Assembly (NCBI GenBank): GCA_000004695.1
Contig: CM000155.2
Coordinates: forward strand, 2,304,001-2,368,000
Length of the DNA stretch: 64,000 nt
From: Dictyostelium discoideum
Taxonomy: Eukaryota
Direction of reading: 5' to 3'
The notes below the pieces were generated by a model. The model was not told the DNA's origin. It was given only the letters and a program-made list of their open reading frames with translations, and ran no database searches. Shown here piece by piece: positions 47,027 to 55,797 of the stretch (the stretch's first letter is position 1; every line of letters starts with the position of its first letter). The translations under genes and the position numbers were made by a program.

Positions 47027-47327
47027 TTATTTTATTTATTTATTTATTTATTATTATTTTTATTTTTTTTATTTTTATTTTTTTTTTACTTACTTGCCAT
47101 TTATAGAGTTTATATGGATCTTTTAATAATGTTGGTTCTCTTGTTGCTGCATTTGCTTTCATTGAAAATGTAGTTTTTGGTAAATTTAATGTATGAGCAA
47201 ATGAATGATTTGAATCTACTATTGCTGATTCTTCATTTTGTGATTTTGTTCCAAATGATCTTTTATAATTATTAAATGAATTAACTATAACTCTTTTGTT
47301 AAAAAAAGAATTATTTAATGATATCAT
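44091..47327 (-). CDS. mileS: Isoleucyl-tRNA synthetase, bacterial/mitochondrial type. Two exons: 47327..47094 and 46961..44091 (intron 47093..46962). ~1034 aa.
   Basis: Exon 1 has an N-terminal presequence-like stretch and TLNLPKTTFSMKANAATREP..., ending KWQ|GTAAGT. Exon 2 starts LENNKGENWVFHDGPPYANGDLHMGHALNKILKD (HMGH = class I HIGH motif). It continues with ...WTIPANQ..., KMSKS (GIKMSKSIGN) and the C-terminal zinc knuckle CPRCWRH...CKPCD typical of eubacterial/organellar IleRS. The symbol mileS is an assumption from the mitochondrial-type features. Confidence 0.85.
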
Positions 47328-47369
47328 TCTTTTTTTTTTATTCGTTTTTTAAAAAAAAAAAAATGATTG

Positions 47370-47403
<34 letters not shown>

Positions 47404-47623
47404 AATGAAAAATGATCACAAGCGAAACCAAAAAAATAATAAAAAAAAAAAAAAAAAAAATGAATGGAAATCAAAATCAAAAAAAAAATAAAAATCTAGA
47501 TATTTTTTTTTTTTTTTTTTCATTAATTATTATTTTTTATTTATTATTTTATTATTTTTTTTTTATTATTTATAATTTTTATTTGTTTTTTTTATTATTA
47601 TTTTTTTTTTTTTAATAATTAAA

Positions 47624-50600
47624 TTAATAATCATTATTATATAATTCTTGATTATATAATAATTTTAAATGATGAATTTTACCAGTATAATCTGATAAAA
47701 TTGAAGATAATTCACCATAATTATCAACCTTAAATAAAATATTTGAAGTTGAAATTGAACCTAATGGAAAAGCGGAAATGATTTCAGAAGATTCAACATC
47801 CCAAAGTATTGAATGTTTTTCATAGGAAGCAGAGAATAAATATTTGCCATTTGGAGAGAAAGATAAACCATGAACTTGGAAAACATGACTTTTTAAAGTT
47901 TTCCAATGATTGAAATTTGGTTTAATAGTGTACAATTCAATATCACCAGTTGATAAACAAAGTGCAAAATGATTTTTACTCCATGCCAAAGATGTAATTG
48001 GTTGAGATGAATTTGATTTGAAAACAACTGAATATTTTGAAGATGCATTCATTCTAAGGATATTAAAATAACCCTTTGAATCTCTTGTTAATAATAATTC
48101 ACCAGTTGAATTGAATTTACATTCATTTAATGAACCACAAAGACGTTCATTAAAAACTTCAACGTTGGTATTAATATTATAAATTACAATTCTACCAGTT
48201 TTACTTGAAAAAGCAACATCACCGTTACCATTTGGATTTACAGAGAAATAAGTTACCATTTCTGATTGTTGTTGTTTATCAGTAGTATCTATTGGATTTT
48301 TTAAATTTAATTGTAAAAATTCCTTAAATTGTATTTGTGAAGTATTGGCTGAAATTGATGCTTCATCAGGTAAACCATTTTCATTTAAAAATTGTTGGAA
48401 ATCTTTAATAATTACAACTCTACCATCTGATAATAAAATGATAAAAGTCTTTTCATCTGATAAAAGTTCAAATTGAGTAGCATAAATATTTAAAGTCATT
48501 CCTAATGATAGTAAATCATTTTTAGAGAAATAATTCCAAATTCTAATTGATTTATCTTCAGAGGTAGATAAGAGTATATCGAGTGATTTAATGTATTGTA
48601 AATAGGTTACAGCTTTTCTATGACCTTGAAGTACTTGAGTATTATTTTGACCTAATTTTGGATCCCAAATTTTAATGAATTTATCAGTGGCACCAGTAAT
48701 GATACGAAGTTTTTCACTATTTGGATGGAAAGCACAAGAGATGATTCTACCTGAATGACCAGTCATTAATGAAACTTGTAACCAATCTTTAGTTTCGAAA
48801 ACTCTAATAGTTTTATCATCGGAACATGATACCAAATATTTACCATCATAAGAGAAACGTGAACTAATAACCGCTTCAATATGACCTTCCAATTGTGCAA
48901 CCTTTGTCCATGTAGAGGTATTGAAAACATGAGTAAAAGTATCAACTGATGAAACTGATAAAAATTGATCATCTGGTGAAAATTGTAAGAATAAAATGGT
49001 TGAATTACAAATTTTGACGGTTTTAATTGGTTGAGCAGTTTTTGAATCCCAAATGATTAATTCACCATTCCAACAAGCGGTTGCAATCAATTTGTTATTA
49101 TGAGAGAAGGCACAAGTTGAAAGTTTATTGGTATGTTTCTTTAATTGAAATAATTTCACTTTCTTTTCAATATCCCAAATGATTGCACTTTGATCCCAAC
49201 TTGCAGTGACTAAACGTTTACCATCACCACTTACACTACAACCCCAAACTGCATTTGAATGACCACCTGCGAAATCGGCTAAAACTTTACCATATTCATC
49301 CCACATTAAAATCTTTTTGTCTCTACCAACGGAAATCAATTGATTACCTCTCCAAATGAGACTTGTAATTTTATCAGTATGAACCTTTGGGAAAACTCTA
49401 ATCAATGAACTAGTTTCACCACTCCAAATTCTAATGGTTTTATCATCGGAACATGAAGCAATCAATTTACCATCATCACGATATAAAACACATCTAATGA
49501 AATCTTCATGACCTGCCAATGTACCAATGACATAATCACTCAATTGTAATTTGTTAACCCATTTAAAGTATGGTTTCTTTGATTGATCTAAAAGTTTCTG
49601 TGATAATTGATTACAAATTGAACCATCTGGTAAATTATTTGCTTGTTGACATGTAATCATTGGGAATCTCTTTAAATTATGAACTTGATATTGAACAAAT
49701 GCACAAAAATCTTCAACTGAATTCACTGATGAAAAATTATTACCAACCCATCTTTCACCTGATAAACTTGGACTTTGAATCTCTTGTAATGATCCAATAA
49801 AATTCTCAACTAAATCTTTTGATAATCCAATTTTAATTTTTGCTTCAATAAATCTTAAATCCATAAATAAATTTGATAATAAATCCCAACGTTTTGATTT
49901 CATTAAATGATATGGTAATTCTTCAAATGGTTTTAATTTATTACTATTCGATAGTAAATTATTATTATTATTATTGCTATTGTTATTATTATTATTACTA
50001 TTATTATTATTATTATTTAATGACCAAGTTTTATTATTTAATGGATCAGCTAATGATAAATAATAATCAGCTAAATTAGATTGAATTAAAATTTGACTTT
50101 TTTCAGTTGGTAAATATTTATTAATGATTACTTTTACAATTGTATTATGAAAGAATGTAATAGTATTATGATCACCACCTCTTAACAATGGTGAAATTGA
50201 ATTTAAAAGTGGTGCCCAAACATTAAATGGTAAAGTATTTTGTTGTTGTTGTTGTTGTTTCTTTTCTTTTAATAAACCTAATAATTCTTCTTCTGATAAA
50301 CCAAATCTTGAAAGTGCAATAAAACATAAAGTTTTTTTAATTAAATCTTTACCCATATCTTCTTCCAAACGATTAATTATATTTAAAATTAATTGATCGA
50401 TTGTATCTGGTATACCTTTGGTAACGAATTGATTCAATTTCTCAAATGAACCAAATACTCTTAACTCTTCACAAGCCAATTTAATGAATAATGGGAATTT
50501 TGCATGAGTTTTTGAAATGAATCTATCTAATAACTTTGGTTCCAATTTTTTAGAAAATTTCTCTAAAGTTTTAGTTGCAATTAAATTCTTTTCATTGATT

Positions 50601-51964
50601 TCTAATGGTGGTAATGAAAGTGTAAATGGAATATTTGAACGAAGATGTAAATATTCCCAACAATCTTTACCATGATAACATGATAATAAAATTTTACATT
50701 TATCATTTAACTCTGTACTATCTGGTAACCAATCCATTTGATGTGCTTGATTTGATGTTGACATTTCATCTAAATCATCAATAACCAATAGAATATTTTT
50801 ATATTTACTTGCTTTCTTTAAAATCTCTGGGAAATCAATACGTAATTTCTCATGATTATCTGAAACTTCCATCTTTAAATTAAATTGTTGATTAAGTTCA
50901 CATGAGAATTTATAAAGAATATTTGTACTTTGAGTTGAATCAATTGAACAACCAACGAAATGATATAAAACCTTCCATGAATCACCATGATTATTTGTAA
51001 TCTCTTTGGCAAAATATGCAAGTGTTGATGATTTGCCACTACCTGGTTCACCATAAATAATACCAATTTTATCATTACTTTGTTTATCAGTTACAAATTC
51101 TTTAAGTTTCTTTTGAATATTCTCTCTACCATAATAATCTGATGATTTTGTATCGAAACAATTCTTATGAAATTGTAATTCTTGTTCAAATGAATCCAAT
51201 GGTTTCAATGGTGTTGGAAATTCAACTTCAATAATTGACCAAAGTTTATTGAAAACGTAATCGCCAAATGTTTCTAAATTGCTTACAAACACTTTAGCCT
51301 CCTTATCAACACCACCATATTTGCATGGATAATTCTCCAAAACATTACAATGATCATTCTCAATGAGTTTACGTTTTAAATCATTTAAAAGTTTTTCAGA
51401 TTCTTTATTCTCAACTTGAAATGATGCTTGATGGCTCAATGGTACTGACGATTGGAATGATGGATCTCTAAAGGCGGCTATACAATGTTTTGATGTCACC
51501 AATGAGTATTGCACCTCCAATGATGTAATGGAATGTCCAAGAGGCATTGAATTTAACCATTGTGAATATTGATCGTTATTATCCGATACTTTATATTCAC
51601 TTGGTACCCAACCAAATCTTGAACCCAACATTGTCAACATAATTGGACATTTATCAATCTGTTTCAAACATAACTCAATTTGACCTTGAACTGTAGTCTC
51701 ATCTTTTGTTAAACCCCATCTTAAATCAATTGGTACAATTGTAAGATTCTTTTCTTTGGCTTTAACATTCAATGCTGGAAATGTTACCTTTATTAAATGA
51801 TCTCTTTCACCCGACATATCCTTAAATGTTGATGATAAAAATACATAAAGTATTGTACCATTTAATTTATTTTCAATATTTTGTTTCTTTATAATTTTTT
51901 CATGTTTAATAATATTATTTTTTAAATCATTATCATTATTTAAACTATTCAATGTTGTTGATAA

Positions 51965-52002
<38 letters not shown>

Positions 52003-52078
52003 CTTTTTTCTTTAAATCAATTTTTTTAAATGGTGATGATAATGATTTTGATTCTGTATTAAATTTTGATTTAAATGG

Positions 52079-52109
<31 letters not shown>

Positions 52110-52321
52110 TAACTATCCTGAGAAGTAGATTGTTGTTGTTGTAACTTTAATTGTTTTTTTTTTTCTTTTTCAATTTCAATAACCATTTTTTTATTTGAAT
52201 TTACAACTTCTAAAAGTTCTTCTTTTTTCATAAATGGTGTATAAGAAATTTTGTAAGATTTTAACCATTTTTGAATTTCATATTTTGTTAATTCCTCTCC
52301 TGGAAATTCAACTTTAACCAT
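47624..52321 (-). CDS. NACHT/P-loop NTPase plus WD40-repeat protein (NWD1-like STAND ATPase), 1565 aa, single exon
   Basis: The N-terminal block LYVFLSSTFKDMSGERDHLIKVTFPAL resembles the DUF4062 module that precedes NACHT in NWD1-type proteins. The Walker A motif is GEPGSGKSSTLAYFAKEI and Walker B is ILLVIDDLDE. The C-terminal third contains >=10 WD40-type repeats (…GHEDFIRCVLYRDDGKLIASCSDDKTIRIW…, …GHSGRIISCAFHPNSEKL…, …SASYEKHSILWDV…). Confidence 0.85.
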
Positions 52322-52594
52322 TTTTATAAAAAATAAAAAAAAGAGTAAGTTTTTAATTAAAAAAATTATATATACAATAGTAAATATAATTAATAATGTA
52401 AAACTTTTTCTAAAAAAAAAAAAAAAAAAGAAAAAAAAAAATGAATGAGTTTTTTTATTTTTTGCTATTTTTTTTTTTTTTTGGAATCTGGGAAAAATCT
52501 ATTTAAATTTTCTCATAAAAATCCTTTTTTCAAATCATTTTTTTTTATTATTGTTTAAAAAAAAAAAAAAATCAAAATTTGATCTTGAATTTTT

Positions 52595-52628
<34 letters not shown>

Positions 52629-53195
52629 AAAAACACAAAAATATCTTTTTTTAAAATGTACAAAAAAAAAAAAATAAAGATATTTTTTTTTAATACGTAA
52701 AATTACATAAATAAAATATATACTAAAAAGTGTGTTAGATTTGAACCCCTTTTTTATTATTTAATTATTTTTATAAATTTTATCTACAAATTGTGTGGAA
52801 AAAAATAATAAATAAATTGAGAATTTGATATACAAAAATAGAAAAAAAAAAAAAAAAAAAAAAAAAAAATTAAAAAACACACAATGAAAAAATAAATAAT
52901 TATTTCTTTTTTTTATTTTAATTTTATATTTTTTACTATATAAATAATTTATTTTTTAATTTTATTTTTTTTTTATTTTTTTATTTTTTATTTTTTATTT
53001 ACCACTTAATAAGTATTCTTATTTTTTAAAAATATAAAAAAATTTAAAAAAAAAAAAATGATTTAAAAAAAGGGGGAATTTTGGGGATTTTTAAAAAATT
53101 GTTTTTTTTTTGTTCAAAGTTTGGAAAAAAAAGGGGTTTTATAAAATTTTAAAAAAAAAAAAAAAAAAAATTTTAAATTTTAAAAAATTTTTAAA

Positions 53196-53379
53196 ATGAT
53201 TACAAAAAACTTTCCCCCAAAAAAAAAAAAAAAAAGGATTTACAAAGATAATAGAGACTCAGGTAAATCATTGGTTTTGGATGGTAAGAGTGATTATTTA
53301 TCAAGTTCAATTATAAGTAAGTGCTAAATATTATTATTATTTAAAGAATAAAAAATAAAAATAATTAATTAATTATTAA

Positions 53380-53414
<35 letters not shown>

Positions 53415-53705
53415 GTTGGATTTGATACATTTAATGTAATTATTGATACAACTTTAAATTATTTAATTGTTGCTGAAAGAAAATGTGATGGTTGTACTCA
53501 ATATCCACCTTATTATAGAGAATCTCAAGTTTTTGAAAATATTCAATGTGATTCTCCTGCTTGTCATTCAATTGGTAATACTTGTGATAAACCAAATAAA
53601 TATGATCCACCAACATGTGGTTATGAAACAAAACTTCAACAATATGGTGCCAATATAAAAAGTATAATAAAAATTATTTTTTTTAAATTAAATTTTATTA
53701 ATTTA

Positions 53706-53752
<47 letters not shown>

Positions 53753-53892
53753 GCAATTTTATACAGAGATATAATATCAATAGATGATTTTAAAAATATA
53801 CCAGTTATCATATCTGCAATTTATGAACAAAGGAATGGTTTATCATTAAATTCTGCAATTTTAGGTGTTGGTCCAAGTGTATGTTTTATTAT

Positions 53893-53934
<42 letters not shown>

Positions 53935-54371
53935 AAGATATTAATATTTTAATTTTATTTTAAAATAAAGTGTTCAACATGCCCACCAAGTCCATTACAA
54001 TCATTATTATATACTTTAAAGAAACCATATATTTTTGGAATTTCATTAGATAAGAATTATTTTGGTGGTATTTCAATTGGTAAAATTGATCCATTATTAT
54101 ATACTGGTGTTATTAATTATACAACTATGAGTAAAAGAGATGGAGTTTATTCAGTATCTCCAATTTTTATTGGGTCACATTGGAATGATCAAATATATAA
54201 TTCAACTCGTAATGATATTAAAAGATTTATTATTTCATCCTCTTCATCACTTTCCTATATTCCAACTTCACCATATAAACAATTAAAACAATTTATAAAA
54301 TCTGCAGGTTGCAAATCTGGTGATTTAGATTTTTGTTCAAAAATTGATTCATTATTTAATTCTGTAGGTCT

Positions 54372-54420
<49 letters not shown>

Positions 54421-54689
54421 TAATTAATAATAAAATTTAGTGTATAAATTCAAGTCAAATTTCAATTAGTAGGTTCCCAGATATTGATCTTTACTTTGAA
54501 AAAGGTTTTATTTTAACAATTCCACCAAAAATCTATTTCCATTCAATTTCTAGAAACAACCAAGTTTTTATTTGTATGGGTATTTTGGAATCAACAGACA
54601 CAAACGCAATTTTGGGTATAAATTTAATGAGAGAACTTTATACAGTTTTTGATAATGAGAAAACATTAATTGGTTTCTCCAGAAAATAA
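53196..54689 (+). CDS. Pepsin-family (A1) aspartic peptidase homologue with degenerate catalytic motifs. Five exons, approximately join(53196..53315, 53416..53653, 53750..53877, 53971..54363, 54441..54689).
   Basis: Exon 2 reads VGFDTFNVIIDTTLNYLIV, with DTT in place of DTG. Exon 3 has ...AILGVGPS. Exon 4 has ...NYFGGISIGKIDPLLYTG...KRFIISSSSSLSYIPTSPY, with ISSSSS where the second hhDTGTS motif should be. Exon 5 reads ...C...ILGINLMRELYTVFDNEKTLIGFSRK*, the canonical A1 C-terminus. The N-terminal exon (MITKNFPPKKKKKRIYKDNRDSGKSLVLDGKSDYLSSSII) lacks an obvious signal peptide, so 5' exons may be missing. Confidence 0.6.
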
Positions 54690-54955
54690 TACTTTTATAT
54701 TAAAACAAAAAAAAAAAAAACAAAAACAAAAAAAAAAAAAAAATATATAAAAATAAAATAAAAAATAAAAAAAAAAAACAAAAAAAAAAAAAGCAATAAA
54801 GAAAAAAAAACAATTGATTTTTGAAAATACAGTTGCCCATTTTTTTTTTTTTTTTTTTTTTTTCTCATTCAATCTTACAAACAACGACCACATCTTTTGA
54901 TTATTTCAAAAAATTTTATTTAACACACATCAAATCACACAATCATTTCCCAAAC

Positions 54956-54993
<38 letters not shown>

Positions 54994-55093
54994 AAAAAAA
55001 AAATAAAATCTTTTTTGATTTAAATTCTGACCCTAACCACCAAATCCTAAATGTCAGGTTTTAATTTTTTATTTTTTTTTTAATTTTAATTTT

Positions 55094-55128
<35 letters not shown>

Positions 55129-55311
55129 TTTTTATTTTTTTTATTTTTTTATTTTGGTCCTTGTTTTAAACTATTGCGATTAATTTAATATATAAATAAA
55201 TTTTTTTTTTTTTTAATTCAAAAAAATAAACAATTATTATAAACAAAACAAAACAAAATAAAAAAAAAAAAAGATTAAAAAAAATATAAAAAAAAATAAA
55301 AAAAATTTGAA

Positions 55312-55749
55312 ATGAAAAATTCAACATCATTAGAACGTATTTCAAATAATGGATTTAATATTGATTATAATTCAATTAAAGACCAAGCATTAAAATATGG
55401 ATATTTAAAAAAGTTGGGAGGAAAAGGAATTTCAAAAAATTGGAAAAAAAGGTTTTTTATTTTAACAAAATCGGGAATATTTTATTATTTTAAACATAGA
55501 ACCGTGAGTTTTTTTTTTTTATTCTATATTTTATTTATATCATATTTTATTTTTATATATCTAACTTTTTTTTATCAAACAATTTATTATTATTCAAAAA
55601 TAATAAAATAAAATAAAATAAAATAAAAATAAAGAGTAAAGAACCTGTCGGAATTATAAATTTAGAAGAATATACAAAGATATATAAAGATAAATCAAAA
55701 AAGAAATATTTTTTATTAGTAAATGAAAATAATCCACAACAAGTAATTA

Positions 55750-55797
<48 letters not shown>

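Follow-up and report, generated by a model that had tools for sequence, protein, structure and literature searches.

We examined a stretch of 64,000 nucleotides from the Dictyostelium discoideum AX4 genome (chromosome 6; assembly GCA_000004695.1, contig CM000155.2, positions 2,304,001 to 2,368,000), referred to here as the window. All coordinates are positions in the window. Our subject is the interval 53196-54689, on the forward strand, which corresponds to annotated gene DDB_G0293164. The model protein has 377 amino acids, and its translation is letter-identical to XP_629277.1 / Q54CE2. The gene is catalogued publicly as encoding a 'Peptidase A1 domain-containing protein'. A preliminary description, made from the DNA alone, proposed a five-exon gene for a pepsin-like pseudo-protease, with both catalytic motifs degenerate and no signal peptide.

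Gene structure

The window is very AT-rich. Five stretches (53196-53316, and the intervals listed for exons 2 to 5 in Table 1) can be joined in frame via GT..AG introns. These introns are short, at 77-99 nt, and contain 3-8% GC; the exons contain 25-27%. This is the arrangement in the public model and the preliminary description. While the joining of the five stretches stands, the number of exons and the start do not. The true gene has six exons and the 5' end of the five-exon model XP_629277.1 / Q54CE2 is wrong. A search for upstream 5' exons, suggested in the preliminary description, located the additional exon, which encodes a signal peptide and is named exon 0 in Table 1. The ATG at 53196, taken as the start by RefSeq, is intronic, as is the 'PPKKKKKR' that follows it. 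Both the ATG and the run of 17 A residues, translated as KKKKK, fall in intron 0. At the junction between exons 0 and 1, …GATAAAAAAGG is expected to be joined to GATTTACAAAGATAAT. The exon lengths are 77, 80, 246, 125, 393 and 249 nt, and the same six values recur in D. firmibasis and two other D. discoideum assemblies. Furthermore, the internal exons, and the motifs that they encode, are the same in independent annotations of nine related genomes.

Table 1. Features of DDB_G0293164 and of the adjoining patch in the window
Feature	Coordinates	Strand	Description
Patch, probable low-quality reference sequence	53043..53218		176 nt; comparison with L002 and L001
Exon 0, signal peptide, corrupted here	53058..53134	+	77 nt; alignment with L002 and L001; exon maps of L001, L002 and L003
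Intron 0	53135..53236	+	Donor GG here, GT in other assemblies; acceptor AG 53235-53236
Exon 1	53237..53316	+	80 nt; short N-terminal segment and first beta strands (…KSLVLDGKSDYLSSSII)
Exon 2	53416..53661	+	Motif 1, six-Cys nepenthesin-type insert, flap
Exon 3	53754..53878	+	N-lobe strands including orthogroup-invariant DFKNIPV; ends with the ILGVGPS block
Exon 4	53971..54363	+	CxxC, highly conserved central sheet, former motif 2 (S-S-S-S-S, 54235-54249)
Exon 5	54441..54689	+	End of C-lobe (GINLMRELYTVFDNEKTLIGF), stop codon, AX4-only G->A at 54501

A garbled patch over exon 0

In the window, exon 0 reads MI*KKGEFWGFLKNCFFFVQSLEKKG where other assemblies give MIYKKWIILVFLINCFLFVQSLDKKG. The lesions are a stop at codon 3, one deletion, one insertion and a GT to GG change of the donor. 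We compared the region with assembly L002 (GCA_054883475.1), from a near-identical strain, whose sequence in the counterpart of 53000-53260 includes ATGATTTATAAAAAGTGGATAATTTTAGTA…. Over 13.7 kb, the window and L002 differ by 22 substitutions, and 18 of these are inside 53043-53218. The patch also contains 3 indels. In a MAFFT alignment of the patch, all substitutions (21/21) turn the window base into that of its neighbour. Examples are TAT to TAA, GTGGAT to GGGGGA, AGTA to GGGG and AATAAA to AAAAAA. Homopolymer runs in the patch number 50 in the window and 77 in L002. A more distant assembly, L001, agrees with L002 and not with the window. Because the changes amount to a one-directional 'smoothing', like poor base calls and unlike a mutational spectrum, the patch is probably an error in the reference sequence rather than a mutation in AX4. 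The corrupted exon 0 of the AX4 reference therefore accounts for the incorrect annotated gene model and for the seeming absence of a signal peptide.

With exon 0 restored, the AX4 protein differs from that of the L002 strain only by Glu to Lys at 54501; the form with its signal peptide has 389 amino acids. The underlying G to A change (FEEGF to FEKGF) occurs only in AX4; the remaining proteins of the D. discoideum group all have Glu at this position, as do most of the more distant orthologues. The change is either a real laboratory-strain substitution or a further base error. Separately, when 47044-60727 is compared with L002, almost all of the differences in length trace to homopolymer runs, with the longer version in the window. 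At 55752-55771, for example, the window has 20 additional T, and at 54411-54418 it has 8 additional A. The pattern suggests that the newer assembly systematically compresses run lengths, or that the reference over-extends them.

Signal peptide and predicted secretory route

In other D. discoideum assemblies the upstream 77-nt exon encodes MIYKKWIILVFLINCFLFVQS, which is present in proteins P0001, P0014 and P0017. Apart from one D. citrinum model, all other proteins of the D. discoideum group start with a variant of MIYKKWIILVFLINCFLFVQS that continues as LDKKG. D. firmibasis and both of the other D. discoideum assemblies have an intact exon 0. D. purpureum opens with a hydrophobic first exon of its own, and the N-termini of more distant orthologues are hydrophobic. 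The segment has the features of a signal peptide: its n-region is basic, its hydrophobic core is 14 residues long, and V-Q-S precedes the predicted cut. Mean N-terminal hydropathy reaches 2.4 with the signal peptide, compared with -2.9 for the AX4 model. Hence, the proposal that the gene lacks a signal peptide is not supported; as the window stands, the exon that encodes it is unreadable. The signal peptide is separated from the first strand by only a short variable stretch, with no propeptide-like region. Similarly, there is no C-terminal anchor or extension. An N-Y-T sequon is invariant in the orthologues. We conclude, from these sequence features, that the orthologues carry a predicted N-terminal signal peptide and that the product is, by prediction, a protein of the secretory pathway.

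Family membership and predicted fold

Alignment to PF00026 (Asp), another of the checks suggested, confirmed the family match. The match covers both lobes (residues 39-375), with E=6.8e-15 and 55.7 bits against a gathering cutoff of 19.9. The TAXi_C model also matches (E=6.3e-12, 46 bits against a cutoff of 23.9) and TAXi_N scores 21.7 bits, under its cutoff of 30. Note that the TAXi models of Pfam also cover active plant proteases.

For structure prediction and column-by-column comparison we used a family alignment of 144 sequences, comprising orthologues and the relatives recovered by an exhaustive profile search. Given this alignment, AlphaFold produced a model with a predicted local distance difference test (pLDDT) score of 92.8 and a predicted template modelling (pTM) score of 0.86. 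The choice of input matters, since eight orthologues alone gave an unusable model (pLDDT 50.6). The model has two beta-rich lobes, and an N-terminal helix at the signal peptide. Foldseek matched it to plasmepsin V and BACE, with E about 1e-20 and template modelling (TM) scores about 0.70. HAP, the Plasmodium histo-aspartic protease (3fns), was also among the structural matches. Structural comparison with inactive homologues gave 28.8 for Bla g 2, 28.4 for basic 7S globulin and 27.0 for TAXI-IIA. The protein is thus predicted to retain the complete bilobal pepsin (A1) fold; the preliminary description had noted its fold-defining blocks in the correct order.

Motif 1 is followed by a six-Cys insert (C..C…C….C……C……C.[YF]), so that the architecture is nepenthesin-type (A1B-like). 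The orthologues keep these residues, Cys 76, 79, 97, 102, 109 and 120, and so do about 100-108 of 136 relatives. The same Cys pattern is seen in an alignment of plant protein P0172 with plasmepsin V. In all, twelve Cys are conserved across the orthologues. At the start of exon 4 (53971-53990) is a CxxC (C-P/S-T-C-P-P, residues 177-180) that is invariant in the orthogroup. The first of its Cys also occurs in ten relatives of the family alignment, dictyostelid paralogues among them. The P/S position is Ser in AX4 and the near-identical strain, and Pro or another residue in all other orthologues. The CxxC is either a local disulfide or a metal site.

State of the catalytic motifs

Motif 1 reads IIDTTLNYL, with the D-T-T codons at 53445-53453. 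The catalytic Asp is present and Thr replaces Gly. In the family alignment, the Asp column is D in all covering rows (130/130). The Gly column is G in 116 rows, and T, S or A in the orthologues. Motif 2 reads FIISSSSSL. Here, the second catalytic Asp is replaced by the first Ser (codon 54235-54237), and the Gly is also gone. A phmmer search of PDB sequences aligned 'krFIISSSSSLsyiP' with 'dkaIVDSGTTLlrlP' of BACE2, residue for residue. The motif-2 Asp column is D in 134 of the 144 rows. The eight orthologues have S, S, K, K, N, E, K and K. One further row, with Ser, may be an orthologue fragment (P0055). Apart from this unassigned row, loss of the second Asp appears, within the alignment, to be confined to the one dictyostelid orthogroup.

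The damage extends to the flap. The residue equivalent to pepsin Tyr75 is Leu (codon 53634-53636). This column is Y in 113 of 136 relatives, and L or I in 8/8 orthologues; the flap Gly has become T or A. Hence, every orthologue of the sampled dictyostelid genera has other residues in place of the second Asp, of the Gly in both motifs, and of Tyr and Gly in the flap. Conversely, the Thr or Ser after each (former) catalytic Asp is kept. In A1 enzymes these are the structural 'fireman's grip' positions. The preliminary description was therefore right that the second Asp is lost from IISSSSSL. It was partly right that both motifs are degenerate: both Gly are gone, and motif 1 keeps its Asp.

Conservation, selection and synteny

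Orthologues were found in D. purpureum, D. firmibasis, D. citrinum, D. dimigraforme, Polysphondylium violaceum, Tieghemostelium lacteum, Cavenderia fasciculata and Heterostelium album, and in two EukProt dictyostelids. These species span the major groups of the dictyostelid class. The ratio of non-synonymous to synonymous divergence (dN/dS), calculated by the Nei-Gojobori method, was 0.072 in the comparison with D. firmibasis (dS 0.38) and 0.12 in that with D. purpureum (dS about 1.1); two D. discoideum lineages compared with each other gave 0.155. Judged by these values, the gene is under strong purifying selection. We considered, and rejected, a decaying or processed pseudogene; dN/dS is 0.07-0.15, exons 1-5 are open and disruption is limited to exon 0.

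Residues 256-265, leading into the lost Asp, form the least conserved 10-residue window of the orthogroup. The same segment is among the best conserved in the active paralogues. Constraint has shifted off the catalytic centre. Within the orthogroup, the strongest constraint specific to it falls on DFKNIPV (146-152), YIFGISLD (196-203) and GINLMRELY (366-374).

Gene order is shared by three species: a NACHT/WD40 gene (-), DDB_G0293164 (+), a PH-domain gene (+) and a DEAD helicase gene (-). The PH-domain gene, at about 55.3-56.5 kb (+) in the window, is a separate downstream neighbour in D. discoideum, D. firmibasis and D. purpureum. In two EukProt models, P0005 and P0007, the A1-like protein is fused to the PH-domain protein. 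These are probably read-through gene models, and they indicate that the gene pair is syntenic across distant dictyostelids.

Some individual orthologues have peculiarities. The C. fasciculata protein (P0006) has a Ser/Thr/Asn-rich insertion of ~60 residues in the C-lobe, at alignment columns of about 362-423. It lies after the Cys290 position (Ala in C. fasciculata) and before Cys298, and is in no other orthologue. The D. dimigraforme protein (P0009) is without 11 residues, IGFDTFNVIID, which span the motif-1 Asp at the exon 1/2 junction. The D. citrinum model without a signal peptide is P0011; a second assembly of this species has one (P0016). The oddities of P0009 and P0011 are probably differences in annotation or assembly, not biology.

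Probable origin within the dictyostelids

Word-indexed searches, with either a single sequence or an orthologue profile as the query, returned the 8 orthologues only, and a mixed profile missed the dictyostelid paralogues. The latter were found by exhaustive search of representative sequences. In that search the orthogroup scored E<=1e-113 and the next matches 1e-53 to 1e-29. Ten of these next matches were identified: eight dictyostelid proteins, one D. discoideum-type sequence and one Clastostelium transcript. The next matches have intact DTG/DSG motifs and the same Cys pattern. In a simple neighbour-joining tree, without bootstrap, the orthogroup is monophyletic and sister to the active paralogues, and its internal order resembles the species tree. 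The most economical explanation of these relationships would be that an active enzyme duplicated once, ahead of the divergence of the sampled dictyostelid lineages, and that catalysis was lost afterwards.

Evidence for expression

Expression was a further point to be checked. In Supplementary S1 of a whole-life-cycle proteome, XP_629277.1 is quantified in one culmination replicate only, at 1.27e6, near the low end of the abundances listed there (PMC12821622). This row hints at late-developmental, low-level or secreted expression. The check is hence positive in part: there is one low-abundance detection at culmination, in the supplement, and no naming of the gene in searchable main texts.

Interpretation

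Our data indicate that DDB_G0293164 probably encodes a secretory-pathway, disulfide-rich pepsin-fold protein with a dismantled catalytic centre, duplicated from an active dictyostelid protease and kept in a non-catalytic role. The proposal of a pseudo-protease in the preliminary description agrees with the shared catalytic losses, the strong purifying selection and the complete predicted pepsin fold. The sequence of events would be as follows. The ancestor would have been an aspartic protease of dictyostelids, active and bearing the nepenthesin-type Cys insert, which duplicated before the sampled lineages diverged. In one copy the second Asp would then have been lost, along with the Gly of both motifs and the Tyr and Gly of the flap, while the fold, the first Asp and the Thr/Ser grip positions were kept. 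The product would be exported, or routed to the endolysosomal lumen. By analogy with inactive A1 homologues, it may act by binding a protein or peptide ligand instead of cleaving it. Binding of other molecules without proteolysis is known for the A1 homologues TAXI, EDGP and basic 7S globulin, and for the pregnancy-associated glycoproteins (PAGs) and Bla g 2.

A more specific possibility, which we hold only tentatively, is a dictyostelid-wide secreted or phagosomal 'decoy', whose pepsin-fold cleft or unusually conserved Cys insert binds a specific partner. One candidate partner is a microbial hydrolase, which would make the protein convergent with plant inhibitors of the TAXI/GIP1 type. Other candidates are one of the organism's own active paralogous proteases, or a developmental peptide signal. 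With such partners the protein would be a pseudoenzyme regulator around culmination.

Several observations weigh against a conserved, non-catalytic, secreted protein. The motif-1 Asp is strictly conserved in the orthologues that cover the site, and the C. fasciculata orthologue has Glu at the second-Asp position. Evidence at the protein level is a single marginal detection, and no main text in the searchable literature names DDB_G0293164 / Q54CE2, which appears only in the proteome supplement. Finally, we infer the error in the patch from the pattern of changes and not from reads. The first two observations, together with the structural match to HAP, would be compatible with a protein that is still a protease with non-canonical chemistry. 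The first Asp would then work with some other residue, as in the Plasmodium HAP, where one catalytic Asp is replaced. We think this very unlikely. The second position is variable in the orthogroup (S/K/N/E), so there is no common catalytic partner at this position. The flap Tyr and Gly, and both motif Gly, are lost too, and the segment before the second position is the most variable window of the orthogroup. Furthermore, there is no propeptide-length segment between signal peptide and first strand.

A second alternative is that the AX4 allele is truly broken. If the changes in the patch are real mutations, the protein would be made without a signal peptide in AX4, or not made at all; AX4 would carry a strain-specific pseudogene, or make a cytosolic truncated product from the ATG at 53196. 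The stop at codon 3 and GG donor of exon 0, the unique Glu to Lys change at a conserved position (54501), and the marginal detection in proteomics of the AX4 lineage, are all consistent with this. We nevertheless regard it as unlikely. Of the 22 substitutions in 13.7 kb, 18 are packed into 176 nt. All patch substitutions (21/21) match a neighbour, and the patch has 50 runs where L002 has 77, which is the mark of base calling and unlike a mutational spectrum. In addition, the other 1.1 kb of coding sequence is intact, with one non-synonymous difference from the near-identical strain. The preliminary description had also allowed that true DTG/DSG motifs might lie in mis-spliced exons, and the 5' end of the model is indeed wrong. 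Nonetheless, we give an artefact of the gene model next to no credence. No other D[TS]G in a hydrophobic context was found in six frames across 52000-55800. The sole D-S-G in that interval, in 'NRDSGKS', is N-terminal to the domain and unconserved. In addition, the internal exons and motifs agree among independent annotations of nine related genomes, and the motifs align by column with BACE2 and 134 relatives. Hence, a pepsin fold kept for a non-catalytic purpose is the interpretation we prefer.

The gene provides a clean, datable case of an aspartic protease becoming a pseudoenzyme, kept across all sampled dictyostelid genera. Since the host is genetically tractable, the ligand of a dead pepsin fold is open to knockout and pull-down. 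There is also a practical yield, namely a corrected six-exon model and a flagged reference error. Note that predictions of secretome or localisation made from XP_629277.1 / Q54CE2 will misclassify the protein.

Comparison with known systems

By sequence, the closest known proteins are active dictyostelid A1 proteases: D. discoideum ACTFIR_004271 (P0023), D. purpureum DICPUDRAFT_152520, H. album PPL_02456 and a 'putative aspartyl protease' of T. lacteum. They share with DDB_G0293164 the six-Cys insert after motif 1, the CxxC near 177-180, the C-lobe cysteines and the taxa in which they occur. Unlike DDB_G0293164, they have DTG/DSG intact in both motifs and retain Tyr in the flap, and several have long C-terminal extensions that it is without. 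Plasmepsin V also has the nepenthesin-type Cys insert in common. However, plasmepsin V, and BACE1/BACE2, are active and membrane-anchored, with both Asp. In contrast, DDB_G0293164 ends just past the last beta strand, with no anchor, and is without the second Asp.

Inactive A1 homologues are already well known, and DDB_G0293164 is a new, uncharacterised member of this company, not a new kind. The preliminary description drew an analogy with TAXI proteins and PAGs. As inactive A1 homologues, the comparison is apt; as membership of either group, we rejected it on relatedness, given the search results and neighbour-joining tree. Its nearest relatives, which carry a nepenthesin-type Cys insert, are dictyostelid proteases that are still active, so we take inactivation to have been independent of that in TAXI and PAG proteins. 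TAXI xylanase inhibitors, soybean basic 7S globulin and carrot EDGP are secreted and non-proteolytic. They resemble DDB_G0293164 in the pepsin fold and Cys-rich insert, and TAXi_C matches it. They differ in not being its closest relatives, and TAXi_N falls below its cutoff; DDB_G0293164 was inactivated separately, inside a dictyostelid clade. Binding and inhibition of GH11/GH12 glycoside hydrolases is a property of the TAXI type. Animal PAGs, and the cockroach allergen Bla g 2, likewise keep the pepsin fold with substituted catalytic motifs, and are thought to bind rather than cleave. Many such animal proteins keep both Asp. Moreover, they are A1 proteins of pepsin/cathepsin type, without the nepenthesin-type insert, and arose by unrelated duplications.
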